A DNA stretch of 64,000 nucleotides from an uncultured Candidatus Berkelbacteria bacterium (lineage in GTDB: Bacteria; Patescibacteriota; UBA1384; UBA12157), in contig CAIRFN010000013.1 in NCBI GenBank assembly GCA_903877885.1, forward strand, positions 2,754 through 66,753, read 5' to 3'. Below, one piece after another: positions 6,887 through 63,123 of the stretch. The notes under the pieces were generated by a model. The model saw nothing but the letters and a program-made list of their open reading frames with translations, was not told the origin of the DNA and made no database searches. The stretch's first letter is position 1; each line of letters starts with the position of its first letter. The translations under genes and the position numbers were made by a program.

Positions 6887-6924
6887 TTTTGTTTGTTTAG
6901 ATTATACCAGATATCATTAGGTTT

Positions 6925-7676
6925 AACCAAATTACTGACTTCGTAGGTTAGTAATTTGGTTAAACAAATAAATGCTTTTTAATTATTGCTAAATCTTTTT
7001 GATCATTAATTCGACTACTAACAAATTTTTGATATTGTTTTGGTTGAATATCCATCAGACTATTAAAATCGCAAAATGATATAACGTCTTTTCCTAGATA
7101 CTCATCATATGAAGAAAAGCTCCAATCCTCCGGCTCTTTAACCAGTCCGGCTGTTACTGGATTAAGATGTTGATATCTCGTCAAATGCAGTAATTGTTCG
7201 TCACTTTCAACTAAAACATTTTTAAATCTTCCTTCCCATAACGGACCTTTGCGACAATGTTTAGTATTAAAGTATCGAGTATAGCCATTAAGGATATCGG
7301 CAACATATTTTGAAACACCATTTTCTTTTAGTTGTTTTAAAACTAAATGGATATGAGTCGGCATAATACAATAAGCAATTATATGTACTAACTTTTCACG
7401 ATCTTTTGAAATTGTAAATAAGGCATTATCAAAACCAAATTGACCGACTAATCTTGATCTCATAAAAGCCGACAAGCTCAAATCATTTTTAATCTGATAA
7501 TATCTAATAAGGTCGATCATCCGCACATATTCTTCATCATTATTAAAAATTTTGTAACCAGCGATGCTTTTCGTGCAAATATGATAGACTTGATCATTAA
7601 CCAAAAAATCTTTTCTCATATTTGAATTATATCATTACTAAACCCAAATTACTAACCTACGAAGTTAGTAATTTGG
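6925..7676 (-). mobile_element. REPtron-like unit: RAYT (IS200-like Y1 transposase) gene flanked by inverted REP hairpins
   Basis: Hairpins aaccaaattactgac-ttcgtagg-ttagtaatttggtt (6925-6961) and cccaaattactaac-ctacgaag-ttagtaatttgg (7643-7676) are inverted copies flanking the transposase ORF. Confidence 0.65.
6960..7619 (-). CDS. REP-associated tyrosine transposase (IS200/IS605 TnpA-like, Y1 HUH family), copy 1
   Basis: HUH motif HIHLVL; catalytic-Tyr region LTRYQHLNP; paralogous to 21600-22271 and 41462-42133. Confidence 0.8.
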   Translation of the reverse strand: MRKDFLVNDQVYHICTKSIAGYKIFNNDEEYVRMIDLIRYYQIKNDLSLSAFMRSRLVGQFGFDNALFTISKDREKLVHIIAYCIMPTHIHLVLKQLKENGVSKYVADILNGYTRYFNTKHCRKGPLWEGRFKNVLVESDEQLLHLTRYQHLNPVTAGLVKEPEDWSFSSYDEYLGKDVISFCDFNSLMDIQPKQYQKFVSSRINDQKDLAIIKKHLFV

Positions 7677-7685
7677 TTAATTGGC

Positions 7686-13553: not shown

Positions 13554-13584
13554 TTCCGGTCAGGTTGGCAACCTAGAACCGGAA
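13554..13584. promoter_or_regulatory. nested palindrome upstream of uvrB (ttccggtc-AGGTTGgcCAACCT-ag-aaccggaa), candidate operator
   Basis: 7-bp outer and 6-bp inner perfect inverted repeats located 11-40 nt upstream of the uvrB start. Confidence 0.35.
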
Positions 13585-13631
13585 TCCAGTTCCCTGTTAT
13601 TCTATCACAAATCCCCAAATTTATCCACATG

Positions 13632-13700
13632 TTGACATCAAGAGAGAGAGAGTAAATTTAAGGTGGAAGGGATCACCTTTCTAAAATTAAATAAGAGGAG
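13632..13700 (+). promoter_or_regulatory. promoter/leader of paralog A: TTGACA, (AG)6 repeat, TAAATT, conserved leader hairpin AAGGTGgaagggatCACCTT, AGAGGAGG RBS
   Basis: About 85% identical to 29609-29688 except for (AG)n repeat number. Confidence 0.5.
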
Positions 13701-13707
13701 GCAAACC

Positions 13708-14472
13708 ATGTCAGACGAAACTTTACAACCGGAAGATGTAGAAAATTTTGTAGCACAAACTAATAATGCGCAAGCAATAGAAACAACAGAGAAAGTTAGA
13801 ACTAGAGAATCAGAGATTCAAACCAATATTGATTTCTGGAAAAACTTGGCATTAGAAGGTATAGAAGTTAATGAAAATGAAATTCGAGCCGCTATTGAAG
13901 TCCTACCAGAAGTCGAAGGGTTTGACTGGTATATCGCCATTCCTGAAGGTGTCAAAACGTCCGAGGTTTGGCAAAAAGTAATCACGCGTTATCCCAACGA
14001 TCCGTCTTTAAATGAATTAAATGGTCTAAAATTGCCACGCGAAACCAAAGAAACCTTTGCTGTGGCTGCCAGGTACAGCAAAAAACCAGACGCTGTCCGC
14101 GAAGAAGGACTAGTCAAATCAGCCAAGGATTGGGAGCGATCAATGTCGGTCTATGAGTCTCCAAATTGGGAAATAGCTGAACACACCTACATGTCTCCCT
14201 TGGAAAGAGTAGTGGCAGAACTGCGCTGGAACGCTGAAAACGGCACTCATTTAGATGAAGGAGATGAGATCACTTTTTGTCCCGGGTCCCGGACAACTGA
14301 CGGTCGTGTCCTTGGCATGCACTTTAACACCTTATATAACAATTGCACCTTCAATAGTTATGATCCTTCCACTAAAAAATGGAATTTAAGAGTCCGCCAG
14401 GTCGTAACTAAAGACACTAAAGTTGAATCAAATACTAATTTCTTTGAACAACGGCCATATCCTACAAAATAG
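13708..14472 (+). CDS. hypothetical protein, paralog A of duplicated family (start MSDETLQPE)
   Basis: N-terminal ~60 aa nearly identical to the 29689 ORF; conserved motifs FDW.IAIP.G, AARYS, C.GSRT.DG, TKDTK; no known domain recognised. Confidence 0.6.
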   Translation: MSDETLQPEDVENFVAQTNNAQAIETTEKVRTRESEIQTNIDFWKNLALEGIEVNENEIRAAIEVLPEVEGFDWYIAIPEGVKTSEVWQKVITRYPNDPSLNELNGLKLPRETKETFAVAARYSKKPDAVREEGLVKSAKDWERSMSVYESPNWEIAEHTYMSPLERVVAELRWNAENGTHLDEGDEITFCPGSRTTDGRVLGMHFNTLYNNCTFNSYDPSTKKWNLRVRQVVTKDTKVESNTNFFEQRPYPTK

Positions 14473-14538
14473 TCATGTAGCCCTGAACTTAACAAAAATG
14501 ACGCTATTACGTCTGAAACCCCGACTCAATAAATTTTA

Positions 14539-14580
14539 CCCGCAAAGCAATTCGAAAGAAACGCAATGCGGGTTTTTAAA
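14539..14580 (+). terminator. rho-independent terminator of paralog A
   Basis: cccgca...tgcggg hairpin + TTTTT; homologous terminator follows paralog B. Confidence 0.6.
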
Positions 14581-14657
14581 TTGAAATGATTTTATAGATT
14601 GCCACGCTTCCCGCCCGCCGGCGGATCGCTCGCAATGACAAAAAAATTATTTTTCTA

Positions 14658-14742
14658 ACCTGTCACAGCCCACTTCGGAAGTGGGCTATATGGTTAAAGT
14701 TTAGTCCGTTACCACCTGGGAGGTGGCAACATATGGTTAGAG
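14658..14742. repeat. REP doublet (agcccacttcggaagtgggct-atatggtta ; ccacctgggaggtgg-caacatatggtta)
   Basis: Two GC-rich hairpins each followed by ATATGGTTA; whole ~85-nt unit repeated at 30566-30651. Confidence 0.65.
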
Positions 14743-14744
14743 AA

Positions 14745-14779
14745 AAAATCTAATCAAAAAGGCTACCCAAGGGCAGCCC
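14745..14779 (-). terminator. terminator of small acidic-protein gene
   Basis: gggctgcccttgggtagcc hairpin followed by T-run on minus strand. Confidence 0.5.
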
Positions 14780-14804: not shown

Positions 14805-14942
14805 CTATTCTGGCATGTCTTCTTCATCGGCTTCTTCTTCTGCGCCTTCGTCTTCTTCCGCGTCTTCTTCACCAGCAACTTCATCTTCTTCAGTTTCTTC
14901 TACTTCTTCTTCATCAACTTGTGGGGTCATATCATCTGTCAT
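14805..14942 (-). CDS. small highly acidic protein (45 aa, Glu/Asp-rich)
   Basis: ATG preceded by GGAGGT RBS at 5-nt spacing; MTDDMTPQVDEEEVEETEEDE...; followed by terminator; the plus-strand Ser-rich ORF 14782-14988 is its antisense artefact. Confidence 0.45.
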   Translation of the reverse strand: MTDDMTPQVDEEEVEETEEDEVAGEEDAEEDEGAEEEADEEDMPE

Positions 14943-20670: not shown

Positions 20671-21551
20671 AGCAGGAATTAAAAATCAAGGATTTATATC
20701 GCGAGATAGTATCCGAACTAAAATCAAAGGAGATTAGTACTCCAGAACTCGATGCTCGAGTTATAATTTGCTATGCGCTGAAAATGACAGACGCGGATTT
20801 TTTTAAAACAGATAACGATCTAATTTCAAATTATCAGGCTGACAAGATTATAAAACTGGTTAGGGAGCGAGTAAAAAATATTCCCGTGGCCTATATTTTA
20901 GGTCAAAAAGAATTTTATGGCCTTAATTTTTATGTTAATAAAAATGTTTTAATCCCCCGCCCAGAGTCGGAATGGTTGGTTGAAGAAGCAGTAAAATATA
21001 TTAAAACCCAAAAAAGAAAAATCGCGATTTTGGATCTGGGAACCGGTAGCGGCAATATCATTATTTCGATTTACAAAAGTTTAATGATTGGCAATTGGCA
21101 ATTTGGCGTTAAGTTTCATGCTTCGGATATTAGTTCAAAAGCTTTATTTATAGCTAAAAAGAATGCGAAAAAATATAAGCTTGATAAAAAAATCAAATTA
21201 TTTCATTCCGATCTGTTTTCTAACTGGCGATTGCAGAAAAAATTTGATTTAATCGTGGCCAATTTGCCGTACGTACCGAAAAACAATGAACCGTTAACTG
21301 TTTACCGTTCACCGATCTCATTTGAGCCACAAAATGCCATTTTTGCATCAGATAACGGCGCGGAAATTATTAAAAAGTTCTTGGTTCAAGCCAAAAATTA
21401 TTTAAATAACAATGGTTTAATTTTAATCGAACTCGATCCGCGAAACGCGGCTGATCTTAAGGAATTTACTCAATCGAACTTCCCTAACACCAAAATCCAG
21501 CTCGAAAAAGATTTAGCTGGATTTGAACGCTACCTTATAATTAGAATCTAA
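20667..21551 (+). CDS. prmC: release factor glutamine N5-methyltransferase PrmC/HemK
   Basis: SAM-binding LDLGTGSG; substrate motif reads NLPY instead of the usual NPPY; 4-nt overlap with prfA. Confidence 0.85.
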
Positions 21552-22343
21552 CACTGTACGGCGACCTCGGAGGTAGGCGAACGGTGTTAGACAAATATTT
21601 TAACCCGAATAGTTATCTATCATCATATTCTTTATAACAGAGATTTGTTTCTGATAAGATTTACGATCATTAACAAATTTTCGATATTGTTCAGAAGTAA
21701 AATCAAATAAGCCGTCGAATTGACATAAATTAGCACTATCAATTTTCAAATATTCCAGATAGGAAGAATGGAGCCAATCCTCTGGCTTCTGAACTAAACC
21801 AGCCGAAGAAGCATTAAGATGAAAATATCGTGTTAAATGCAATAACTGATTATCTGTTGAAACTTCCACATCTTTAAATTTACTCTCCCATAGAGGCCCG
21901 GACCGATGATGCTTGGAATTGAAATATCTTGTATAACTATTTAAAACTCTGGACATGAACTTAGAAATTCCTTGGTCGGCGACTTGTTTCAATATTAAAT
22001 GAATGTGAGTTGGCATAATTGTATATGCGATAATTTCAACTAGAACTTGGCTGTTTAATTGAACATTCTGGATTATTTTTTGTTGCAAAAAGGGATTTAG
22101 ATCAGAAAATTTAGAATAACAATAATTGAAATCTATGTATCGATAAAGCTTTAATAGTTCCTTTATTCTTGAAAAATCTTGCGGATCATTAAAAATAGTA
22201 TACTTTGCAATACTACGACTAAAAACATGATAATAATGTCCATTTGCTAATGGATATTTTCGTATATTCATTTATTTAATCATACCATAAGATAATAAAA
22301 TTAACACTGTACGCCTACCTCGGAGGTCGTCGTATAGTGTTAG
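21550..22343 (-). mobile_element. REPtron-like unit 2: RAYT gene flanked by REP hairpins aacactgtacg...tcggagg...cgaacggtgtta
   Basis: Imperfect palindromes at 21550-21589 and 22301-22343 with TCGGAGG loops flank the ORF. Confidence 0.6.
21600..22271 (-). CDS. REP-associated tyrosine transposase (IS200-like Y1), copy 2
   Basis: HIHLIL HUH motif; LTRYFHLN Tyr motif; N-term MNIRKYPLANGHYYHVFSRS like copy 3. Confidence 0.8.
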   Translation of the reverse strand: MNIRKYPLANGHYYHVFSRSIAKYTIFNDPQDFSRIKELLKLYRYIDFNYCYSKFSDLNPFLQQKIIQNVQLNSQVLVEIIAYTIMPTHIHLILKQVADQGISKFMSRVLNSYTRYFNSKHHRSGPLWESKFKDVEVSTDNQLLHLTRYFHLNASSAGLVQKPEDWLHSSYLEYLKIDSANLCQFDGLFDFTSEQYRKFVNDRKSYQKQISVIKNMMIDNYSG

Positions 22344-22365: not shown

Positions 22366-22428
22366 ACCAAAATCCAGCTCGAAAAAGATTTAGCTGGGCT
22401 TGAACGATATTTGATAATTAAGAACTAG
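22366..22428 (+). repeat. divergent duplicate of the last 63 nt of prmC (orphan 3' gene end)
   Basis: First 32 nt identical to 21489-21520, remainder ~65% identical; still encodes ...LEKDLAGLERYLIIKN* in frame. Confidence 0.6.
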
Positions 22429-23345
22429 TTCAGAATTTGCTTTAAAGAAACATCATCAACGTAGACTGAACCAGCCGAATTAGGTGAGAAGAAATGAAAA
22501 TTTACCAACGTTGTAGTAGAAGAAGTTGTAAATGGGAAACTAACTAATGTATAAGTTGTACCTGCAACGTTAGTACTTGTTCGATCTAAAGAAGGTGGAA
22601 TATTAGTTCCCGAACCAATTGTATTGTCTGAAACTTGATAATAACCATTCTTACTACCATCTCCTCGTGTCCAAAAAGTTAAAAGATATTTTGTGCTCGG
22701 TGAAACAGTTATTCTTGGCGAAATATCAACATATGATTGACCAGATGTATAGGTTAATTTAGCGGCATTTACACCACTATGAACCGGCGATGTTATATTT
22801 TCGATCAATCCAGAGCCTTTTTGTTCCGACCAATTATTAGCCCAAACATCATCCCCACCTGCGCCTAAAGTTTCAAAGCTTGGATTTGGAATTAATTCTG
22901 GGCCATAAATTGGCACTTGAGCGATCAAGGATACTGTCCCATTAGAATCAAATACAAAACTTTGCGGATTACTGGTACCAATAGTGGTTGGTAGATCAGC
23001 CAAAACTTGGTAAGTCCCGTCAGTTTGAACCGAAATCACCAAAGCGCTACCTTGATTTTTGATATCAGAAGCAATTGATTGGATTTTAGTAATATCGTCA
23101 GAACCAGAGGGATTGGGCAAAGACTCGCATGAACCAGCACAGTTTAAAACTAATGGATTAATTCCGTTATCCAAGGCAATCTGAACCTCATTTCTTGCTT
23201 GGCCTAAATCGCTTTGGACTCGAGCATCTTTGGCTTTAGCCCGTGCGGAATTTAAGGCTACCAAAACCATAGCCGCTAAAATGCCAATAATAGCGATAAC
23301 GACTAATAGTTCGATTAAAGTGAAGGCTGAAAGTTTTTTATTCAT
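22425..23345 (-). CDS. type IV pilin-like protein with C-terminal carbohydrate-binding-like beta domain
   Basis: Prepilin N-terminus FTLIELLVVIAIIGILAAMVL; paralogous to 55752-56675 in the pilin domain. Confidence 0.6.
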   Translation of the reverse strand: MNKKLSAFTLIELLVVIAIIGILAAMVLVALNSARAKAKDARVQSDLGQARNEVQIALDNGINPLVLNCAGSCESLPNPSGSDDITKIQSIASDIKNQGSALVISVQTDGTYQVLADLPTTIGTSNPQSFVFDSNGTVSLIAQVPIYGPELIPNPSFETLGAGGDDVWANNWSEQKGSGLIENITSPVHSGVNAAKLTYTSGQSYVDISPRITVSPSTKYLLTFWTRGDGSKNGYYQVSDNTIGSGTNIPPSLDRTSTNVAGTTYTLVSFPFTTSSTTTLVNFHFFSPNSAGSVYVDDVSLKQILN

Positions 23346-29502: not shown

Positions 29503-29608
29503 CTTTCCCCCTCCATCAATTCAAGGTACAGCCCATCGACTGATCGATAGACCAATTAGTTCAGACATTACCTGGATTATGTTCGATAGTCAAGGCCTTG
29601 ACAGAACC

Positions 29609-29688
29609 TTGATTTCGAGAGAGAGAGAGAGAGAGTAAATTTAAAGTGGAAGGGATCACCTTTCTAAAATTAAATAAGGAGGCAAATC
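29609..29688 (+). promoter_or_regulatory. promoter/leader of paralog B: TTGATT, (AG)9 repeat, TAAATT, conserved leader hairpin, AAGGAGG RBS
   Basis: Homologous to 13632-13700 but with 3 more AG units; an extra TTGACA lies at 29598. Confidence 0.5.
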
Positions 29689-30501
29689 ATGTCAGATGAA
29701 ACTTTACAACCAGAAGCTGCTGAAGATTTTGTGGCAACGATTAATAATGTGCAAGATGTAGAAACAACAGAGAAAGTTAGAACCAAGGAATCAGAAATTC
29801 AAGCCAATATTGATTTTTGGAAAATTAATGGTAAAAAATATTTTGGTATTGAGATTGATGAACAGGAAATAAGAAATGCAATTGAATCATTGCCAGAAAA
29901 AGAAGGTTTTGATTGGTTAATTGCTATACCTAAAGGGTTAAAATTATCTGATGTATCTATGAATAAATGGTCGCACGATTATACTATTTACGATCCAATC
30001 AATGACGCAAATCCAGAAAAAAGGCAAGCCCACAGGGATTTAATTGATGCTATTCAAATGCCACGCAATGCACAGGAAACTTATGCCATCGCCGCTCGTT
30101 ATAGTGCCGAACCAGATGATGGAAGCTATGAACATGATTATATGGGCAAAAATCATAAAAGCAGTTTAGAATGGGAACAGACAGGTAAAGCATTTATGTC
30201 TCCTATGGAATGGATAATTGCTGATATGCGCTTTAATGTCAATACTGATATGCGTTTTGATCTTAAGACCGATAACCACCTAGATACTGCTCACAGACTT
30301 CCTCTTGTTGTTCACAATAGTACACTTTGTGCTGGTTCAAGAACACCTGATGGCAAAGTACCTTATGTGAGTTGGAGCCAGTTAGGTGCCGGAGGACTTA
30401 GCTTTAATACTCTAAAACCAGAAAATAAGATTTTTTCAGATATTGGTGTTCGCGAAGTAATAACTAAAGATACTAAAACTGAAGCAGAACAAACTGAATA
30501 A
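29689..30501 (+). CDS. hypothetical protein, paralog B of duplicated family
   Basis: N-terminus and several internal motifs shared with the 13708-14472 ORF. Confidence 0.6.
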   Translation: MSDETLQPEAAEDFVATINNVQDVETTEKVRTKESEIQANIDFWKINGKKYFGIEIDEQEIRNAIESLPEKEGFDWLIAIPKGLKLSDVSMNKWSHDYTIYDPINDANPEKRQAHRDLIDAIQMPRNAQETYAIAARYSAEPDDGSYEHDYMGKNHKSSLEWEQTGKAFMSPMEWIIADMRFNVNTDMRFDLKTDNHLDTAHRLPLVVHNSTLCAGSRTPDGKVPYVSWSQLGAGGLSFNTLKPENKIFSDIGVREVITKDTKTEAEQTE

Positions 30502-30519
30502 TAGTTTTTTTAAATTCAA

Positions 30520-30558
30520 CCCGCAGAACAAATCGAAAGATTAATCTGCGGGTTTTTT
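30520..30558 (+). terminator. rho-independent terminator of paralog B
   Basis: cccgcag...ctgcggg hairpin + T6. Confidence 0.6.
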
Positions 30559-30565
30559 AATCCCA

Positions 30566-30651
30566 AACCTGTCACGGCCCACTTCCAGGGTGGGATATAT
30601 GGTTAAAATTTACCAAGTTACCACCTTGGAGGTGGTAACATATGGTTAGAA
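30566..30651. repeat. REP doublet (cccacttccagggtggg-atatatggtta ; gttaccaccttggaggtggtaac-atatggtta)
   Basis: Homologous to 14658-14742; the second hairpin is identical to the one inside mnmA. Confidence 0.65.
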
Positions 30652-30701
30652 AACAAGCTAAACCCGCCTGCCGGTAGACAGGACTTGATCTACGGAAAAT
30701 T

Positions 30702-39350: not shown

Positions 39351-40541
39351 CTATTTAATAATTCCTCCACCCAGAACCTCTTCTTTGTAATAGAAGACGA
39401 CTGATTGACCAGGCGTAATTGCTCGTTGCGGTTTCTTAAATATTACTCTAACTTCTTCATCATTAATATGTGTAATCTGACAAGGTTCGATTGGATGACC
39501 ATGACGGATTCTGGCACTTATATTATTTGTTTTTGGTTTATTAATCCAGTTTAAATTTGTGGCCACCAGTTCTTTTTGGAATAAATCTTCATCTTGACCG
39601 ACAATTAATTCATTGGTTTTACTCTTCAATTTTATCACATAATAAGCGTTCGGACCACCCAAACCCAAACCTTCGCGCTGACCGATTGTGTAATTTATTA
39701 AACCGTCATGCGTGCCGATTTGGGTTTTGGTTTTGATGTCAATAATCGGACCAGGCTCGGTTAGATTTTGAGCGTAGCGGCGTAAAAAGCCGCCAACATT
39801 TCTGTCCGGAATAAAACAAATGCCTTGGGACTCACGGCGCGTCGCGGTCGGAAGTTGCATCTCGAGAGCCAGTTGGCGAATTTGCGGTTTAGTATAATCG
39901 CCACAAGGAAATAAAACGTGGGCTAATTTTTCTTGTGTTAGCGTCCACAAAAAATAAGTTTGATCTTTAACTTTGTCTTTCGGTTGCAAAAAATGATATC
40001 CGGTTTTGTCTTTTTTGATTCTGGCGTAGTGACCAGTCGCTAAATATTCGGCATCTAACTCAAAGGCTTTTTGCATCAAAAGTTCGCCTTTAATATCACG
40101 ATTACAAATCACGCACGGATTTGGCGTGCGACCCGATTCATATTCTTCAATATAATAATCCACCACTAATTTTTTAAATTCTTTTTCAAAATTAACAACA
40201 TAAAAAGGAATGCCCAGCTTTTTGGCCACCGCGCGAGCGGCAGTCGAGGCGTCCACCGAGCAACAGATATTTTCGCGCAAACCAGATGTTACCACCTTGG
40301 AGGTGGTAACTTGAGGTTCAGCCCAAAGCTTCACGGAGTCTGAATCTTTGTCGCCGGAATCGCTCCAAAGCTTCATAAAAATTCCCACGACGTCAAAGCC
40401 CTGTTTTTTTAGTAGCGCGGCGGCAACCGATGAGTCCACTCCGCCAGACATTGCGCACACTACTCGTGGTTTCTTTCTGTCATTGCGAGCCGCCGCAGCG
40501 GCGTGGCAATCTTTCTTTAAATTGTCATTTTCTTTTTTCAT
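39351..40541 (-). CDS. mnmA: tRNA-specific 2-thiouridylase MnmA, carrying in-frame repeat insertions
   Basis: SGGVDSS PP-loop, catalytic Cys residues, C-terminal barrel; extra ~25 aa after FMKLW and a GC-rich N-terminal extension. Confidence 0.9.
   Translation of the reverse strand: MKKENDNLKKDCHAAAAARNDRKKPRVVCAMSGGVDSSVAAALLKKQGFDVVGIFMKLWSDSGDKDSDSVKLWAEPQVTTSKVVTSGLRENICCSVDASTAARAVAKKLGIPFYVVNFEKEFKKLVVDYYIEEYESGRTPNPCVICNRDIKGELLMQKAFELDAEYLATGHYARIKKDKTGYHFLQPKDKVKDQTYFLWTLTQEKLAHVLFPCGDYTKPQIRQLALEMQLPTATRRESQGICFIPDRNVGGFLRRYAQNLTEPGPIIDIKTKTQIGTHDGLINYTIGQREGLGLGGPNAYYVIKLKSKTNELIVGQDEDLFQKELVATNLNWINKPKTNNISARIRHGHPIEPCQITHINDEEVRVIFKKPQRAITPGQSVVFYYKEEVLGGGIIK
40283..40375. repeat. 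REP hairpin (gttaccaccttggaggtggtaac + ttgaggttcagcc) inside the mnmA reading frame, with 11-nt direct repeats ccaaagcttca
   Basis: 23-nt hairpin identical to 30617-30639; encodes AEPQVTTSKVVTSG, absent from E. coli MnmA. Confidence 0.7.
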
Positions 40542-40586
40542 CAGGTCTATTTTACCATATTTTTCAAAATTTTACCACCTTTACCA

Positions 40587-40620
40587 CCGCCACTTCGGAA
40601 GTGGCGGTGAGGTTTAATTG
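40587..40620. repeat. REP hairpin ccgccacttcggaagtggcgg + tgaggtttaattg
   Basis: Same TTCGGAAG loop and GAGGTTT tail as other REPs. Confidence 0.6.
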
Positions 40621-41367: not shown

Positions 41368-41423
41368 CTCATCATTTTAAACAAAAAGAAATATCACACG
41401 CTAGCGCCACAAAGAAATTTTCT

Positions 41424-42182
41424 AACCATATAGCGTACACCCTGGAAGTGTACATTGAGGTTTAGCCGGAGTAATTATCAATCAAAATATTTTTGATTAG
41501 CGCCAAATCGCGTTGATATGATTTTTGGTCAAGAACAAACTTCTTGTATCTTTTTGGCGACATATCAATGATTTCTTTAAATAAGCAAATCGGATTATTC
41601 ACTTCCTCGCAAAATTCTTTTAGAGAAGAAAAAGGCCAATCAAACGGATTATCAACCAAACCAGCTGAACTCGGATTTAGGTGCACATAGCGTGTTGAGT
41701 GTAATAATTGATTATCATTTTCAATTAAAACATTCCTGAAATGTCCTTCCCATAATGGACCGTTTCGATGATGTTTTAAGTTAAAATATCTAGTATAACT
41801 ATTTAAAATTTTACCGATATATTTTGAAATTCCATCATCTTTTTTCTGCTTTAAAATAAGATGAAAATGCGTCGGCATAATACAATAAGCCACAATTTCG
41901 ACCAAAACATCGTTATTCTTTTTTAGGCTATTTAAAATAGCCGTTTGAGCCATCATCTCCAGTTCTTTAAACCTTGAGTACTTATGATTAAATTCCGCAA
42001 AACGGTACATATCCAAGAGTTCTAAAATCCTATAATAATCATCGTCATCATTAAAAATCTGATATTTAGCGATACTCCGACTAAAGATATGATAATATTG
42101 GTCGGTTGCTAAAGGCGTTTTTCTAATATTCATAAGTCGATTATACCACAATGTACACCCCGGGGGTGTACATTGGTTTAAC
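41424..42182 (-). mobile_element. REPtron-like unit 3: RAYT gene flanked by inverted REPs (aaccatatagc-gtacaccctggaagtgtac-attgaggttt / aatgtacaccccgggggtgtacatt-ggtttaac)
   Basis: GTACAC/GTGTAC stems in inverted orientation on both sides of the ORF. Confidence 0.65.
41462..42133 (-). CDS. REP-associated tyrosine transposase (IS200-like Y1), copy 3
   Basis: HFHLIL HUH motif, STRYVHLNP Tyr motif; start set at MNIRKTPLA (42133) because the upstream ORF extension is encoded by the REP hairpin. Confidence 0.8.
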   Translation of the reverse strand: MNIRKTPLATDQYYHIFSRSIAKYQIFNDDDDYYRILELLDMYRFAEFNHKYSRFKELEMMAQTAILNSLKKNNDVLVEIVAYCIMPTHFHLILKQKKDDGISKYIGKILNSYTRYFNLKHHRNGPLWEGHFRNVLIENDNQLLHSTRYVHLNPSSAGLVDNPFDWPFSSLKEFCEEVNNPICLFKEIIDMSPKRYKKFVLDQKSYQRDLALIKNILIDNYSG

Positions 42183-42200
42183 AATCATTAAATCTCCAAC

Positions 42201-47899: not shown

Positions 47900-47940
47900 T
47901 TAACCATTTCTATCACCTACGAGGTGTTAAGAATGGTTAA
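47900..47940. repeat. REP hairpin ttaaccatttctatcacc-tacgagg-tgttaagaatggttaa
   Basis: Loop TACGAGG and GGTTAA ends resemble the RAYT1-flanking REPs. Confidence 0.5.
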
Positions 47941-51975: not shown

Positions 51976-52007
51976 TAATTTATTATACCAAATAAATATT
52001 AACCCTC

Positions 52008-52040
52008 AAAGTACACCCCGGGGGTGTACTTTGGTTTAAA
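52008..52040. repeat. REP hairpin aaagtacaccccgggggtgtacttt-ggtttaa
   Basis: Same family as the right REP of RAYT3 (42150-42182). Confidence 0.6.
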
Positions 52041-52066
52041 AAGATATTTTGTGCTAGAATAATTGT

Positions 52067-55751: not shown

Positions 55752-56675
55752 TTATCCTCCAGAAGCTAGGGTTTTAATTTCTTCATCAGTTAAAACTCGA
55801 TTATAGACTCGAACGTCGTCAACTGTGCCAGTAAAACTTCCACTATCTTTAACAATCGAAAAAACACCAGCTAAATTAGCTGTAAAATTAGCGCTTGTTT
55901 TACTAATAAAATTTCCATCAAGATACAAACTAATGTTATTACCATTTTTAATCCCGACTACGCAGTGCCAGTTTCCGTCAGTATATGAAGTTGAAGTTTC
56001 CACGGTTGCACTAGCCGTGCCGAATTTATCGCGGACAAAATAAGAAACTTTACCATTATCTAACGAAATTTGATCAGCTGTACTATCGGAATTTAATCCA
56101 TTTAAACCAAATAAAATCAGAGAACTGTTACTTTGACTAGTTTTAAACCGACCGGAAATAGTTAGCGGTTCGGCCGCTACATTTTCAGAACCAATAATAT
56201 TAATTAGTTTGTTATTATCTATTTTCCACCAAGAAATCAGGCCAGCATATAAAGTCGTGGTAAAACTAGTACCGTCCGACTTTACTACAAAAGATTGAGT
56301 ATTATTTGTTGACGGCAACGTCGTATACGCCTGATAAGTGCCATCAGAATTAGTCATAATAGTCAAATCACTACCTTGAGCTTTGATGTCCGCGGCTACA
56401 AGGTTCAATTTAACCAAAACATCGGTTGAGTTTGAAAAATTATCGCAGTGGATTGATATGATTGGCGAACAATTTAAATTACTAGCAGGATTAGCATCTA
56501 AATAAGTTTTGACTAAATTTTTTATCTGACTTAGATCATTTTTAATTCGGGCGTCTTTGGCTTTAGTTTTACTAGAATTTATAAACACTAAAACCATCAC
56601 CGCCAAAATGCCGATGATAGCTATAGCAACCAAGAGTTCAATCAGTGTGAAACCGTGATTAGATTTTTTAAACAT
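55752..56675 (-). CDS. type IV pilin-like protein with C-terminal concanavalin-A-like (LamG) domain
   Basis: GFTLIELLVAIAIIGILA prepilin N-terminus; C-terminal ...GNWHCVVG...LYLDG...DDVRVYNRVLTDEEI LamG-like. Confidence 0.6.
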   Translation of the reverse strand: MFKKSNHGFTLIELLVAIAIIGILAVMVLVFINSSKTKAKDARIKNDLSQIKNLVKTYLDANPASNLNCSPIISIHCDNFSNSTDVLVKLNLVAADIKAQGSDLTIMTNSDGTYQAYTTLPSTNNTQSFVVKSDGTSFTTTLYAGLISWWKIDNNKLINIIGSENVAAEPLTISGRFKTSQSNSSLILFGLNGLNSDSTADQISLDNGKVSYFVRDKFGTASATVETSTSYTDGNWHCVVGIKNGNNISLYLDGNFISKTSANFTANLAGVFSIVKDSGSFTGTVDDVRVYNRVLTDEEIKTLASGG

Positions 56676-58913: not shown

Positions 58914-58940
58914 TTTTCTCCTTTTTTTAATTAATATTTT

Positions 58941-58985
58941 AACCTTATAATGTACACCCTGGAAGTGTACGTTGGTTTTAATTAC
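58941..58985. repeat. REP hairpin aaccttataa-tgtacaccctggaagtgtac-gttggttttaa
   Basis: Near-identical to the left REP of RAYT3 (41424-41467). Confidence 0.6.
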
Positions 58986-62694: not shown

Positions 62695-63123
62695 CTACGG
62701 GCAGGAAGTTTGAGTCGACGAAACAGAATTGACTTCTTCTCCAGAACCGTTATAATCAGCGCAAAAAACTTTTTTAGTATCTGGTAAAGTCGCATAAATT
62801 ACGTATGTAGTATCGGTTGTATTTTCATTTATTTTTGAACCGGATTTTTGAACATCGCTTAAAATAGTTTTAGCAGTGGGATCAGTTTCAAAACCTTTAT
62901 ATGTTGAATGCTGACTATTATAATTCTCGGCTACATTCCGCATTTGGCTCACATCGCTCATGATGCGAGCGTCAGTGGCTTTACCGCGAGCGGAGCTCAA
63001 AGATACTAAAACCATAGCCGCTATAATACCAATTGGCACAATCATGACTAAAAGTACAACAATAACGATAAGCCACCAAGGAATTTTTGATTTTGGTTTA
63101 GCTTGAACTGGCTGTGGCTCCAT
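62695..63123 (-). CDS. pilin-like protein (N-terminal hydrophobic helix + pilin helix, no canonical G-F/TLIE cleavage motif)
   Basis: IAAMVLVSLSSARGKATDARIMSDVSQMR resembles the conserved pilin alpha1 region of the other pilin-like genes. Confidence 0.45.
   Translation of the reverse strand: MEPQPVQAKPKSKIPWWLIVIVVLLVMIVPIGIIAAMVLVSLSSARGKATDARIMSDVSQMRNVAENYNSQHSTYKGFETDPTAKTILSDVQKSGSKINENTTDTTYVIYATLPDTKKVFCADYNGSGEEVNSVSSTQTSCP

Follow-up and report, generated by a model that had tools for sequence, protein, structure and literature searches.

A length-variable AG repeat within candidate promoters of two paralogous Berkelbacteria genes from a predicted lectin-fold family that includes retroelement-diversified proteins

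We analyzed a 64,000-nt stretch of DNA (the window) from an uncultured Candidatus Berkelbacteria bacterium (GenBank assembly GCA_903877885.1, contig CAIRFN010000013.1, positions 2,754 to 66,753), in which two related one-gene modules, A (13621-14747) and B (29598-30656), each carry an (AG)n repeat between the -35-like and -10-like hexamers of a candidate promoter. The repeat at B differs in length between assemblies, and both genes encode proteins with a predicted C-type-lectin/FGE-like fold whose family includes targets of diversity-generating retroelements (DGRs). On balance, and with a little more confidence than doubt, we favor the view that a contingency promoter drives a lectin-fold binding protein in each module. 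The promoter repeat and the DGR connection of the family are the most interesting content of the region. A preliminary description of the window had drawn attention to the twin modules; the lectin-like fold predicted by modeling, the membership in a DGR-target family, the placement of (AG)n within a candidate promoter, its variation in length between assemblies, and its recurrence at family promoters in other Patescibacteria are new here.

Each copy is a self-contained unit comprising a candidate sigma-70-type promoter, 5' hairpin leader, Shine-Dalgarno (SD) site, coding sequence (CDS), intrinsic terminator, and hairpin doublet. In A, the promoter reads TTATCCACA, TTGACA, TCA, (AG)6, TAAATT, with a spacer of 15 nt. 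In B, TAAATT lies 32 nt from one -35 candidate (TTGACA) and 21 nt from the other (TTGATT), and the segment holding both candidates has no homology to A. The 5' features are as follows; the A hexamers, the A SD site, the B -35 candidates, and the B -10-like hexamer were read from the sequence.

13621-13629, plus strand: exact match to the DnaA-box consensus TTATCCACA, 2 nt upstream of the A -35
13632-13637, plus strand: -35-like hexamer TTGACA of A
13641-13652, plus strand: (AG)6 tract in the promoter spacer of A (TTGACA-15 nt-TAAATT)
13653-13658, plus strand: -10-like hexamer TAAATT of A
13656-13692, plus strand: leader hairpin of A (inner stem UGGAAGGG/CCUUUCUA, outer stem AUUUAA/UUAAAU)
13693-13701, plus strand: SD site AAGAGGAGG of A, 6 nt ahead of the ATG
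13708-14472, plus strand: CDS A, 254 amino acids (P0001), acidic and soluble, with a predicted C-type-lectin/FGE-like fold
29598-29614, plus strand: the two -35 candidates of B, TTGACA (29598-29603) and TTGATT (29609-29614)
29617-29635, plus strand: (GA)9G, equivalent to (AG)9, of B, polymorphic in length
29636-29641, plus strand: -10-like hexamer TAAATT of B
29639-29682, plus strand: leader hairpin of B with SD site AAGGAGG (29676-29682)
29689-30501, plus strand: CDS B, 270 amino acids (P0004), paralog of A

Apart from these two tracts, the window has no (AG)n run of at least four units, and no other dinucleotide repeat there exceeds four units. Across 170 kb, made up of the window and 19 distinct loci (L plus a number below), all nine dinucleotide repeats of at least six units are AG/CT. 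Eight of them directly precede a family gene; the remaining one is inside the DGR reverse transcriptase (RT) of L023, beside a family gene. The repeat-in-promoter layout is found at 8 of the 17 family loci with readable upstream sequence, and none of these eight is DGR-linked. Candidate promoters at other family loci read as follows.

L018: TTGACA-cgc-(AG)7-TTAAAT, 17-nt spacer
L028: TTGACA-aatcc-(AG)6-TTAAAT, 17-nt spacer
L037: TTGCAA-agc-(AG)9-TTAAAT, visibly homologous to L018 with two more units
L029: TTGACA-attaga-(AG)10, spacer of about 30 nt
L001: at least 8 AG units, then TAAATTT
L040: TTGACT(CT)n-TATAAT, (CT)6 on the coding strand, spacer of 10 nt
L036: degenerate tract AGAGAGGGAGAAAG, exactly 17 nt from TTGACA to TTAAAT

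By consensus match, TTGACA or a near variant abuts the tract upstream, with T(T)AAAT downstream, in A, L018, L028, L036, and L037; T(T)AAAT also directly follows the tract in B and L001. Plain promoters of the form TTGACA-17-TATAAT or TATTAT, lacking a repeat, precede the family genes of L019 and L023/L025. TTGACA is about 4.5-fold denser in the intergenic than in the coding DNA of the window, which makes sigma-70-type promoters plausible in these organisms.

The site TTATCCACA at 13621-13629 is the only exact copy on either strand of the window, where it sits in the divergent intergenic region that A shares with uvrB. In A, L018 (224-232), and L037 (1077-1085), 0 to 2 nt separate it from the -35 that follows, and L036 has TTATCCACt. 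Among 42 loci, the other exact copies are confined to L018 and L037, plus L008-L011, which are assemblies of A itself. The conservation of the box at family promoters shows that the gene has carried the entire design (box, -35, repeat, -10) with it across deep divergence. We regard the box as a putative DnaA site, at which DnaA may bind and affect transcription.

Repeat length varies at B. Two assemblies (L030 and L031) carry 10 units in place of the 9 in the window, and in L031 the remainder of the 2,096 nt matches the window exactly; in ERZ1426629 the gene spacing at B is likewise 2 nt longer, as judged from spacing only. Over about 2 kb around B in several samples, the sole differences are two AG-unit indels, one in the promoter and one in the leader, barring a divergent end of L030 (28544-28646). 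This is the behavior expected of a hypermutable repeat. Contigs start or stop within the tract at L001, L014, L032, and L038.

Under the contingency-promoter reading, slipped-strand gain or loss of AG units would alter the spacing between -35 and -10 and hence promoter strength, and each paralog would flip heritably and reversibly between high and low transcription. Seven units would give a 17-nt spacer in A, counted from TTGACA, and in B, counted from TTGATT. The assembled states (15 nt for A; 21 or 23 nt for B) would be low-expression states, and L018, L028, and a "locked" L036 would be high-expression states. The transcript would start at the hairpin, continue into a strong SD site, and end at the intrinsic terminator, and the protein would bind a variable ligand on a host cell, a phage, or another partner. 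The effect of repeat number on expression is an inference.

Similar promoter-spacer repeats are found at hifA/hifB of Haemophilus influenzae, as (TA)n, at opc of Neisseria meningitidis, as poly-C, and at vlp of Mycoplasma hyorhinis, as poly-A. The classical example in pathogens is the poly-G tract in the promoter spacer of N. meningitidis porA (PMC3639595). As in promoters of the porA type, a perfect short repeat lies between -35 and -10 hexamers (candidate ones here), its length varies between otherwise identical genomes, and it is the sole such repeat in its region. Unlike in that type, the unit is AG, the repeat occurs in an uncultivated Patescibacterium, no evident surface protein is encoded, and the ON and OFF states are predicted ones. 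The same promoter design is also inherited across deeply diverged homologs here rather than being strain-specific.

Several observations weigh against a switching promoter. The -35 and -10 elements of A and B are consensus matches, TAAATT is a weak -10, and a consensus promoter scan called neither promoter, because their spacers fall outside 16 to 18 nt. A number of spacers are more than one repeat step from 17 nt: 21/23 nt (from TTGATT) or 32/34 nt (from TTGACA) in B, about 30 nt in L029, and 10 nt in L040. Lacking a signal peptide sets both proteins apart from what is usual among classical phase-variable genes and among most cellular DGR targets (PMC8144416). The A tract is constant at six units in four assemblies (L008-L011), and neutral drift could account for assemblies that differ by a single unit. 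Finally, the evidence that promoter repeat and DGR exclude each other is a count of 0 of 4 loci linked to a DGR versus 8 of 13 others (Fisher p = 0.08, or p = 0.03 with L036 counted).

The main rival is that (AG)n is a fixed functional element, either a regulator site or a homopurine-homopyrimidine tract that senses supercoiling by forming H-DNA, and that the length differences are tolerated noise. The tract keeps the same promoter position across proteins that are only 30 to 47% identical, with spacers of 10 to 32 nt that reveal no obvious optimum; this, together with the invariance of A in the four assemblies and the conserved TTATCCACA just upstream, which suggests protein-mediated regulation, is what such an element would lead one to expect. 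A sequence-specific site, however, needs no perfect uninterrupted repeat, and unit number differs between homologous promoters whose flanks are conserved (7 versus 9; 9 versus 10). The degenerate tract of L036 retains exactly 17 nt, and in L040 the coding strand reads (CT)6. We therefore consider a fixed element rather unlikely.

The proteins driven by these candidate promoters match no catalogued sequence family. Searches with A and B gave no match in Pfam, NCBIfam, PHROGs, or PADLOC; none of 70 family members matches the Pfam families FGE-sulfatase, DUF1566, or Lectin_C at E values up to 0.01; and the family profile finds nothing better than E = 0.25 among Protein Data Bank sequences. An exhaustive profile search recovered 846 family representatives (at 50% identity) at E values up to 1e-3, 50 of them at E values up to 1e-30. 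An initial word-index search had returned only 5 proteins, and we rejected the notion of a tiny family as an artefact of sensitivity once the exhaustive search had shown a large one. The relatives come from metagenome-assembled genomes of Patescibacteria, Saccharibacteria, and Berkelbacteria and are annotated only as "hypothetical protein"; a family scan found none in viral contigs.

An AlphaFold2 model built from the 70 sequences (pLDDT, the predicted local distance difference test score, 85.7; pTM, the predicted template modeling score, 0.82) assigns the family, by structural match, a predicted C-type-lectin/FGE-like fold, and a weaker first model gave the same picture. Several of the structures matched by the predicted fold are DGR variable proteins. 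A Foldseek search of the viral structures in BFVD gave no match at E values up to 0.001, leaving a phage tail-fiber origin unsupported. Both proteins are small and acidic and lack a hydrophobic segment, with no signal peptide or transmembrane segment and a maximum 19-residue Kyte-Doolittle mean of 0.74. The preliminary description was thus right that there is no signal peptide and right that no sequence domain is recognizable, and structure prediction now supplies the fold that it lacked.

Four relatives of A and B are DGR targets. In L017, L023, and L024, the family gene ends in ~130 nt (the variable region, VR) of which a second copy (the template repeat, TR) lies 300 to 450 nt downstream at 84 to 92% identity. 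Where the two copies mismatch, the TR has an adenine in 10 of 10, 18 of 19, and 17 of 17 cases, respectively. Downstream in L017 are an Avd-like four-helix protein and a 333-amino-acid RT in which the motifs IGNLTSQ and YCDD are present; L035 is organized in the same way and has precomputed matches to bAvd and RVT_1. The proteins of L023 and L025 differ almost only in the VR. A aligns with the L035 DGR target P0155 (40% identity, E = 4e-51) and B with the L017 DGR target P0022 (34% identity, E = 5e-34), and both alignments run through the VR, which places the equivalent regions as follows.

14278-14418, plus strand: VR-equivalent of A (residues 191-237), mapped from the VRs of L017, L023, and L035
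30328-30474, plus strand: VR-equivalent of B (residues 214-262)

In their predicted fold, A and B resemble the C-type-lectin/FGE variable proteins of DGRs (Treponema TvpA, Bordetella phage Mtd, Thermus TaqVP, and targets in the candidate phyla radiation [CPR]). They differ from these in having no TR or RT within 64 kb, a sequence that is constant between samples, and no signal peptide, membrane anchor, or Pfam FGE-sulfatase or DUF1566 signature.

Some further features of the DGR-linked loci were observed along the way. In L017 (3974-4339), L023 (6018-6368), and L035 (4269-4544), target gene and RT share a strand and the Avd gene occupies the other; the Avd gene of L017 also overlaps the end of the TR and the start of the RT. 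The family protein encoded at L028:1057-2082 ends in a coiled-coil segment (...LNQDYKRLL...FRREQLGM...) that resembles the N-terminal extension of the DGR-linked proteins of L017, L023-L025, and L035. The RT open reading frame (ORF) of L023 contains (AG)14 (6905-6932), reading ...SERERERERERVKRGLP, between RT motifs, and the contig ends 19 nt further on. Since a one-unit change there would frameshift the RT, phase variation may extend to the retroelement itself, with AG repeats possibly acting as a switch of the DGR RT.

DGRs and lectin-fold targets are known in CPR bacteria, with most targets unclassified (PMC5758913, PMC8144416). Patescibacteria are mostly uncultivated episymbionts with tiny genomes whose partner recognition and adaptation are largely unknown, and DGRs are the one diversification device known for them (PMC5758913). 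The present analysis gives a DGR-target family a predicted fold, shows its large size, and ties its non-DGR members to a second, cheaper candidate mechanism of variation. In lineages that lack an adjacent DGR, expression would vary; in DGR-linked lineages, sequence would. Tentatively, an ancestral contingency promoter (DnaA-box-like site, -35, (AG)n, -10) may have belonged to this lectin-fold family in Patescibacteria, with DGR mutagenesis or repeat slippage as alternative devices. In the literature searched, we found no description of repeat-based phase variation in Patescibacteria, nor of a family whose members undergo DGR diversification in some lineages and follow a repeat-containing promoter in others. 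The interest of the finding depends on whether the repeat really switches expression. If it does, this would be the first repeat-based phase variation in the CPR, the family would be a key interface with hosts or phages and a prime candidate for studies of host or phage interaction in cultivable Saccharibacteria, and metagenomic reads alone could follow ON and OFF states in natural populations. If it does not, a clean annotation of an old paralog pair with a probably gene-converted 5' end still stands.

The history of that pair can be read from how similarity is distributed along it. Beyond the CDS, the modules comprise the following elements.

14538-14578, plus strand: intrinsic terminator of A, with a 7-bp GC stem, a GAAA-looped inner stem, and then a U-run
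14657-14747, plus strand: hairpin ("REP") doublet of A, 84% identical to 30566-30656
30518-30560, plus strand: intrinsic terminator of B (from its RNA fold)
30566-30656, plus strand: hairpin ("REP") doublet of B, of the same hairpin family as the A doublet

The proteins align end to end (42% identity, E = 6e-62), and the window holds exactly two copies of a 39-nt leader motif, of which shuffled sequences contain none; the structural twins are present as the preliminary description placed them, with similarity that greatly exceeds chance and runs the full length of the proteins in a family that is not a housekeeping one. All of the motifs it listed (FDW.IAIP.G, ET.A.AARYS, MSP.E, C.GSRT.DG, and TKDTK) are found in the alignment. 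DNA homology begins exactly at the (AG)n tract (29617/29624 in B) and ends past the 91-nt hairpin pair. The B unit had been started at 29609, which overlooks TTGACA at 29598 and implies homology from the -35 onward. The tract and leader are 98% identical over 55 nt, the first 148 nt of the CDS 85%, and the segment 13641-13957 as a whole 78.6% identical to 29624-29943 (E = 6e-72). The ~85% formerly quoted for the leaders is thus the value for the start of the CDS, and the ~60 N-terminal residues called near-identical amount to 76% similarity over codons 1-46. The middle of the CDS is unalignable as DNA, and similarity returns in its final 39 nt (77%), in the terminators (77%), and in the doublets (84%); for terminators and doublets, the homology reported earlier, spacer included, holds.

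Synonymous divergence (dS, Nei-Gojobori) between A and B is 0.54 over codons 1-46, saturated (above 3 or undefined) over codons 47-200, and 1.25 over codons 201-254. Among proteins of other metagenomes, P0002 (locus L001) is the closest. A is more similar to P0002 than to B over residues 47-100 (70% versus 54%) and 101-190 (51% versus 33%), and the order is reversed over residues 1-30 (39% versus 73%). This greater likeness of A to P0002 along the protein body places the duplication before the P0002 lineage split off. A and B are ancient paralogs of a gene specific to Patescibacteria, and a ~200-bp block comprising the tract, the leader, and the first ~46 codons was homogenized between them later, probably by gene conversion to judge from this mosaic. 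A B variant bears on the same point: over 1,001 nt, L015 (ERR4195020) departs from the window by nothing but one additional AG at the SD site, which yields AAGAGGAGG, the form found in A, where B of the window has AAGGAGG.

Purifying selection on an RNA element or on the N-terminal peptide could instead have kept the leader and first 46 codons alike. The region does take in the SD site and start codon, and L001 keeps a hairpin at the same leader position despite altered stem bases (AGAAGGA/UCCUUCU). Leader folds are nevertheless weak (z scores of -1.4 to -1.9; A, -13.4 kcal/mol, z = -1.4), and residues 1-30, for which disorder is predicted, are less conserved in the family than any other part. 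The 5' similarity of A to B exceeds that of A to P0002 and the order flips downstream, and the B variant of L015 carries the SD-region form of A, so we consider selection alone quite improbable beside gene conversion. At 13664-13683 and 29647-29666, the leader hairpin has a 3' arm, GGGAUCACCUUUCUAA, that resembles the 3' end of bacterial 16S rRNA and base-pairs with an SD-like purine arm; a similar SD-like/anti-SD-like hairpin is present in L001.

The preliminary description had proposed that gene, leader, and flanking REPs moved or were duplicated as a cassette. The elements were indeed duplicated together, with homology across the whole unit from tract to doublet, noncoding ends better conserved than the synonymous sites of the CDS, and both copies on the minority strand between housekeeping operons. 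A recent move is highly unlikely, however, given saturated dS over 80% of the CDS, a protein body of A closer to P0002 than to B, the A-type SD site in the B of L015, a hairpin family spread through the window independently of A and B, and boundaries at which no transposase, integrase, terminal inverted repeats, or target-site duplication was seen. Old paralogs with a probably gene-converted control region largely replace the cassette.

A DGR elsewhere in the genome could also target A, B, or both, through a TR and RT acting in trans from outside the window. Four family members are DGR targets, DGRs with remote targets are on record (PMC5758913), and A retains a GC-rich, VR-end-like GTCCGCCAGGTCGTAAC (compare GTCCGCCGGGTAGTTTC in L023) with a GC-rich inverted repeat after it. 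Within the window, however, blastn with word size 7 finds no second copy of 14200-14480 or 30230-30510, and tblastn with the L017 RT and Avd finds no credible match; the best (E = 0.015) is an ORF for a class II FBP aldolase and was rejected. The VR-equivalents of A and B are mutually unalignable as DNA, so a single TR would be unable to act on the two of them. The P0001 sequence is the same in 11 public contigs and that of P0004 in 13 to 15, from several samples, each protein forming a one-member cluster at 90% identity; variation confined to the VR was not seen among populations for either, whereas DGR-linked L023 and L025 differ almost only there. A and B belong to a DGR-target family, their own targeting is unsupported within the 64-kb window, and we give remote targeting little credence.

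The terminators fold stably (A, -15.7 kcal/mol, z = -3.6; B, -19.6 kcal/mol, z = -7.2) and are followed by U5-U6; a simple terminator scan missed both because their loops are long. An Rfam scan yielded no credible family in the whole window at the gathering threshold or in module A at an E-value threshold. The doublets (z = -2.7 for A and -4.6 for B) are homologous pairs of hairpins, as first described, whose members belong to a family of ~40-nt intergenic hairpins with TAACC...GGTTA ends and variable inner stems that preserve pairing, which is common in the intergenic regions of the window (at least 10 copies). Copies lie at the following positions.

6923-6963, 7644-7680, 21549-21590, 22302-22343, 40576-40612: hairpin family
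41416-41457, 42140-42184, 47900-47940, 51998-52042, 58933-58983: hairpin family, continued

Like the palindromes known as REP (repetitive extragenic palindrome) and BIME (bacterial interspersed mosaic element), these are short, imperfect, GC-rich, multicopy, and intergenic, often follow terminators, and are sometimes paired. They differ in their TAACC...GGTTA consensus with variable inner stems and in the homology of the two doublets, spacer included. A third "REP" match at 40279-40318, considered as a third module, was rejected, as it lies inside a CDS and has only one arm. A second short repeat, TTGCCACGC-(GC-rich)-GCTCGCAATGACA, is found at 14601-14643, at 40474-40510 (inverted), and at about 1905-1945 of L029, where it is also 3' of a family gene. 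It explains the A-specific 53-nt insert between terminator and hairpin doublet.

The window has a G+C content of 38.6% and an extreme strand bias, with about 58 of 63 ORFs of at least 110 amino acids on the minus strand. CDS A and CDS B are two of only five plus-strand genes. A neighbors uvrB and proS, and B neighbors gatCAB and PHP-ligA; each copy is convergent with and divergent from housekeeping operons. No gene neighborhood is conserved among the family loci examined, at every one of which unrelated housekeeping genes flank the family gene. Just downstream of proS, a 45-amino-acid hyperacidic ORF with runs of E and D (14805-14942, minus strand) is called in public assemblies, and a terminator-like hairpin lies nearby at 14760-14779. 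Elsewhere in the window, 112-nt direct repeats with 69 to 72% identity (23199-23310, 56526-56637, and 62944-63055) sit within three minus-strand ORFs (22425-23345, 55752-56675, and 62695-63123), which are probably paralogous genes.

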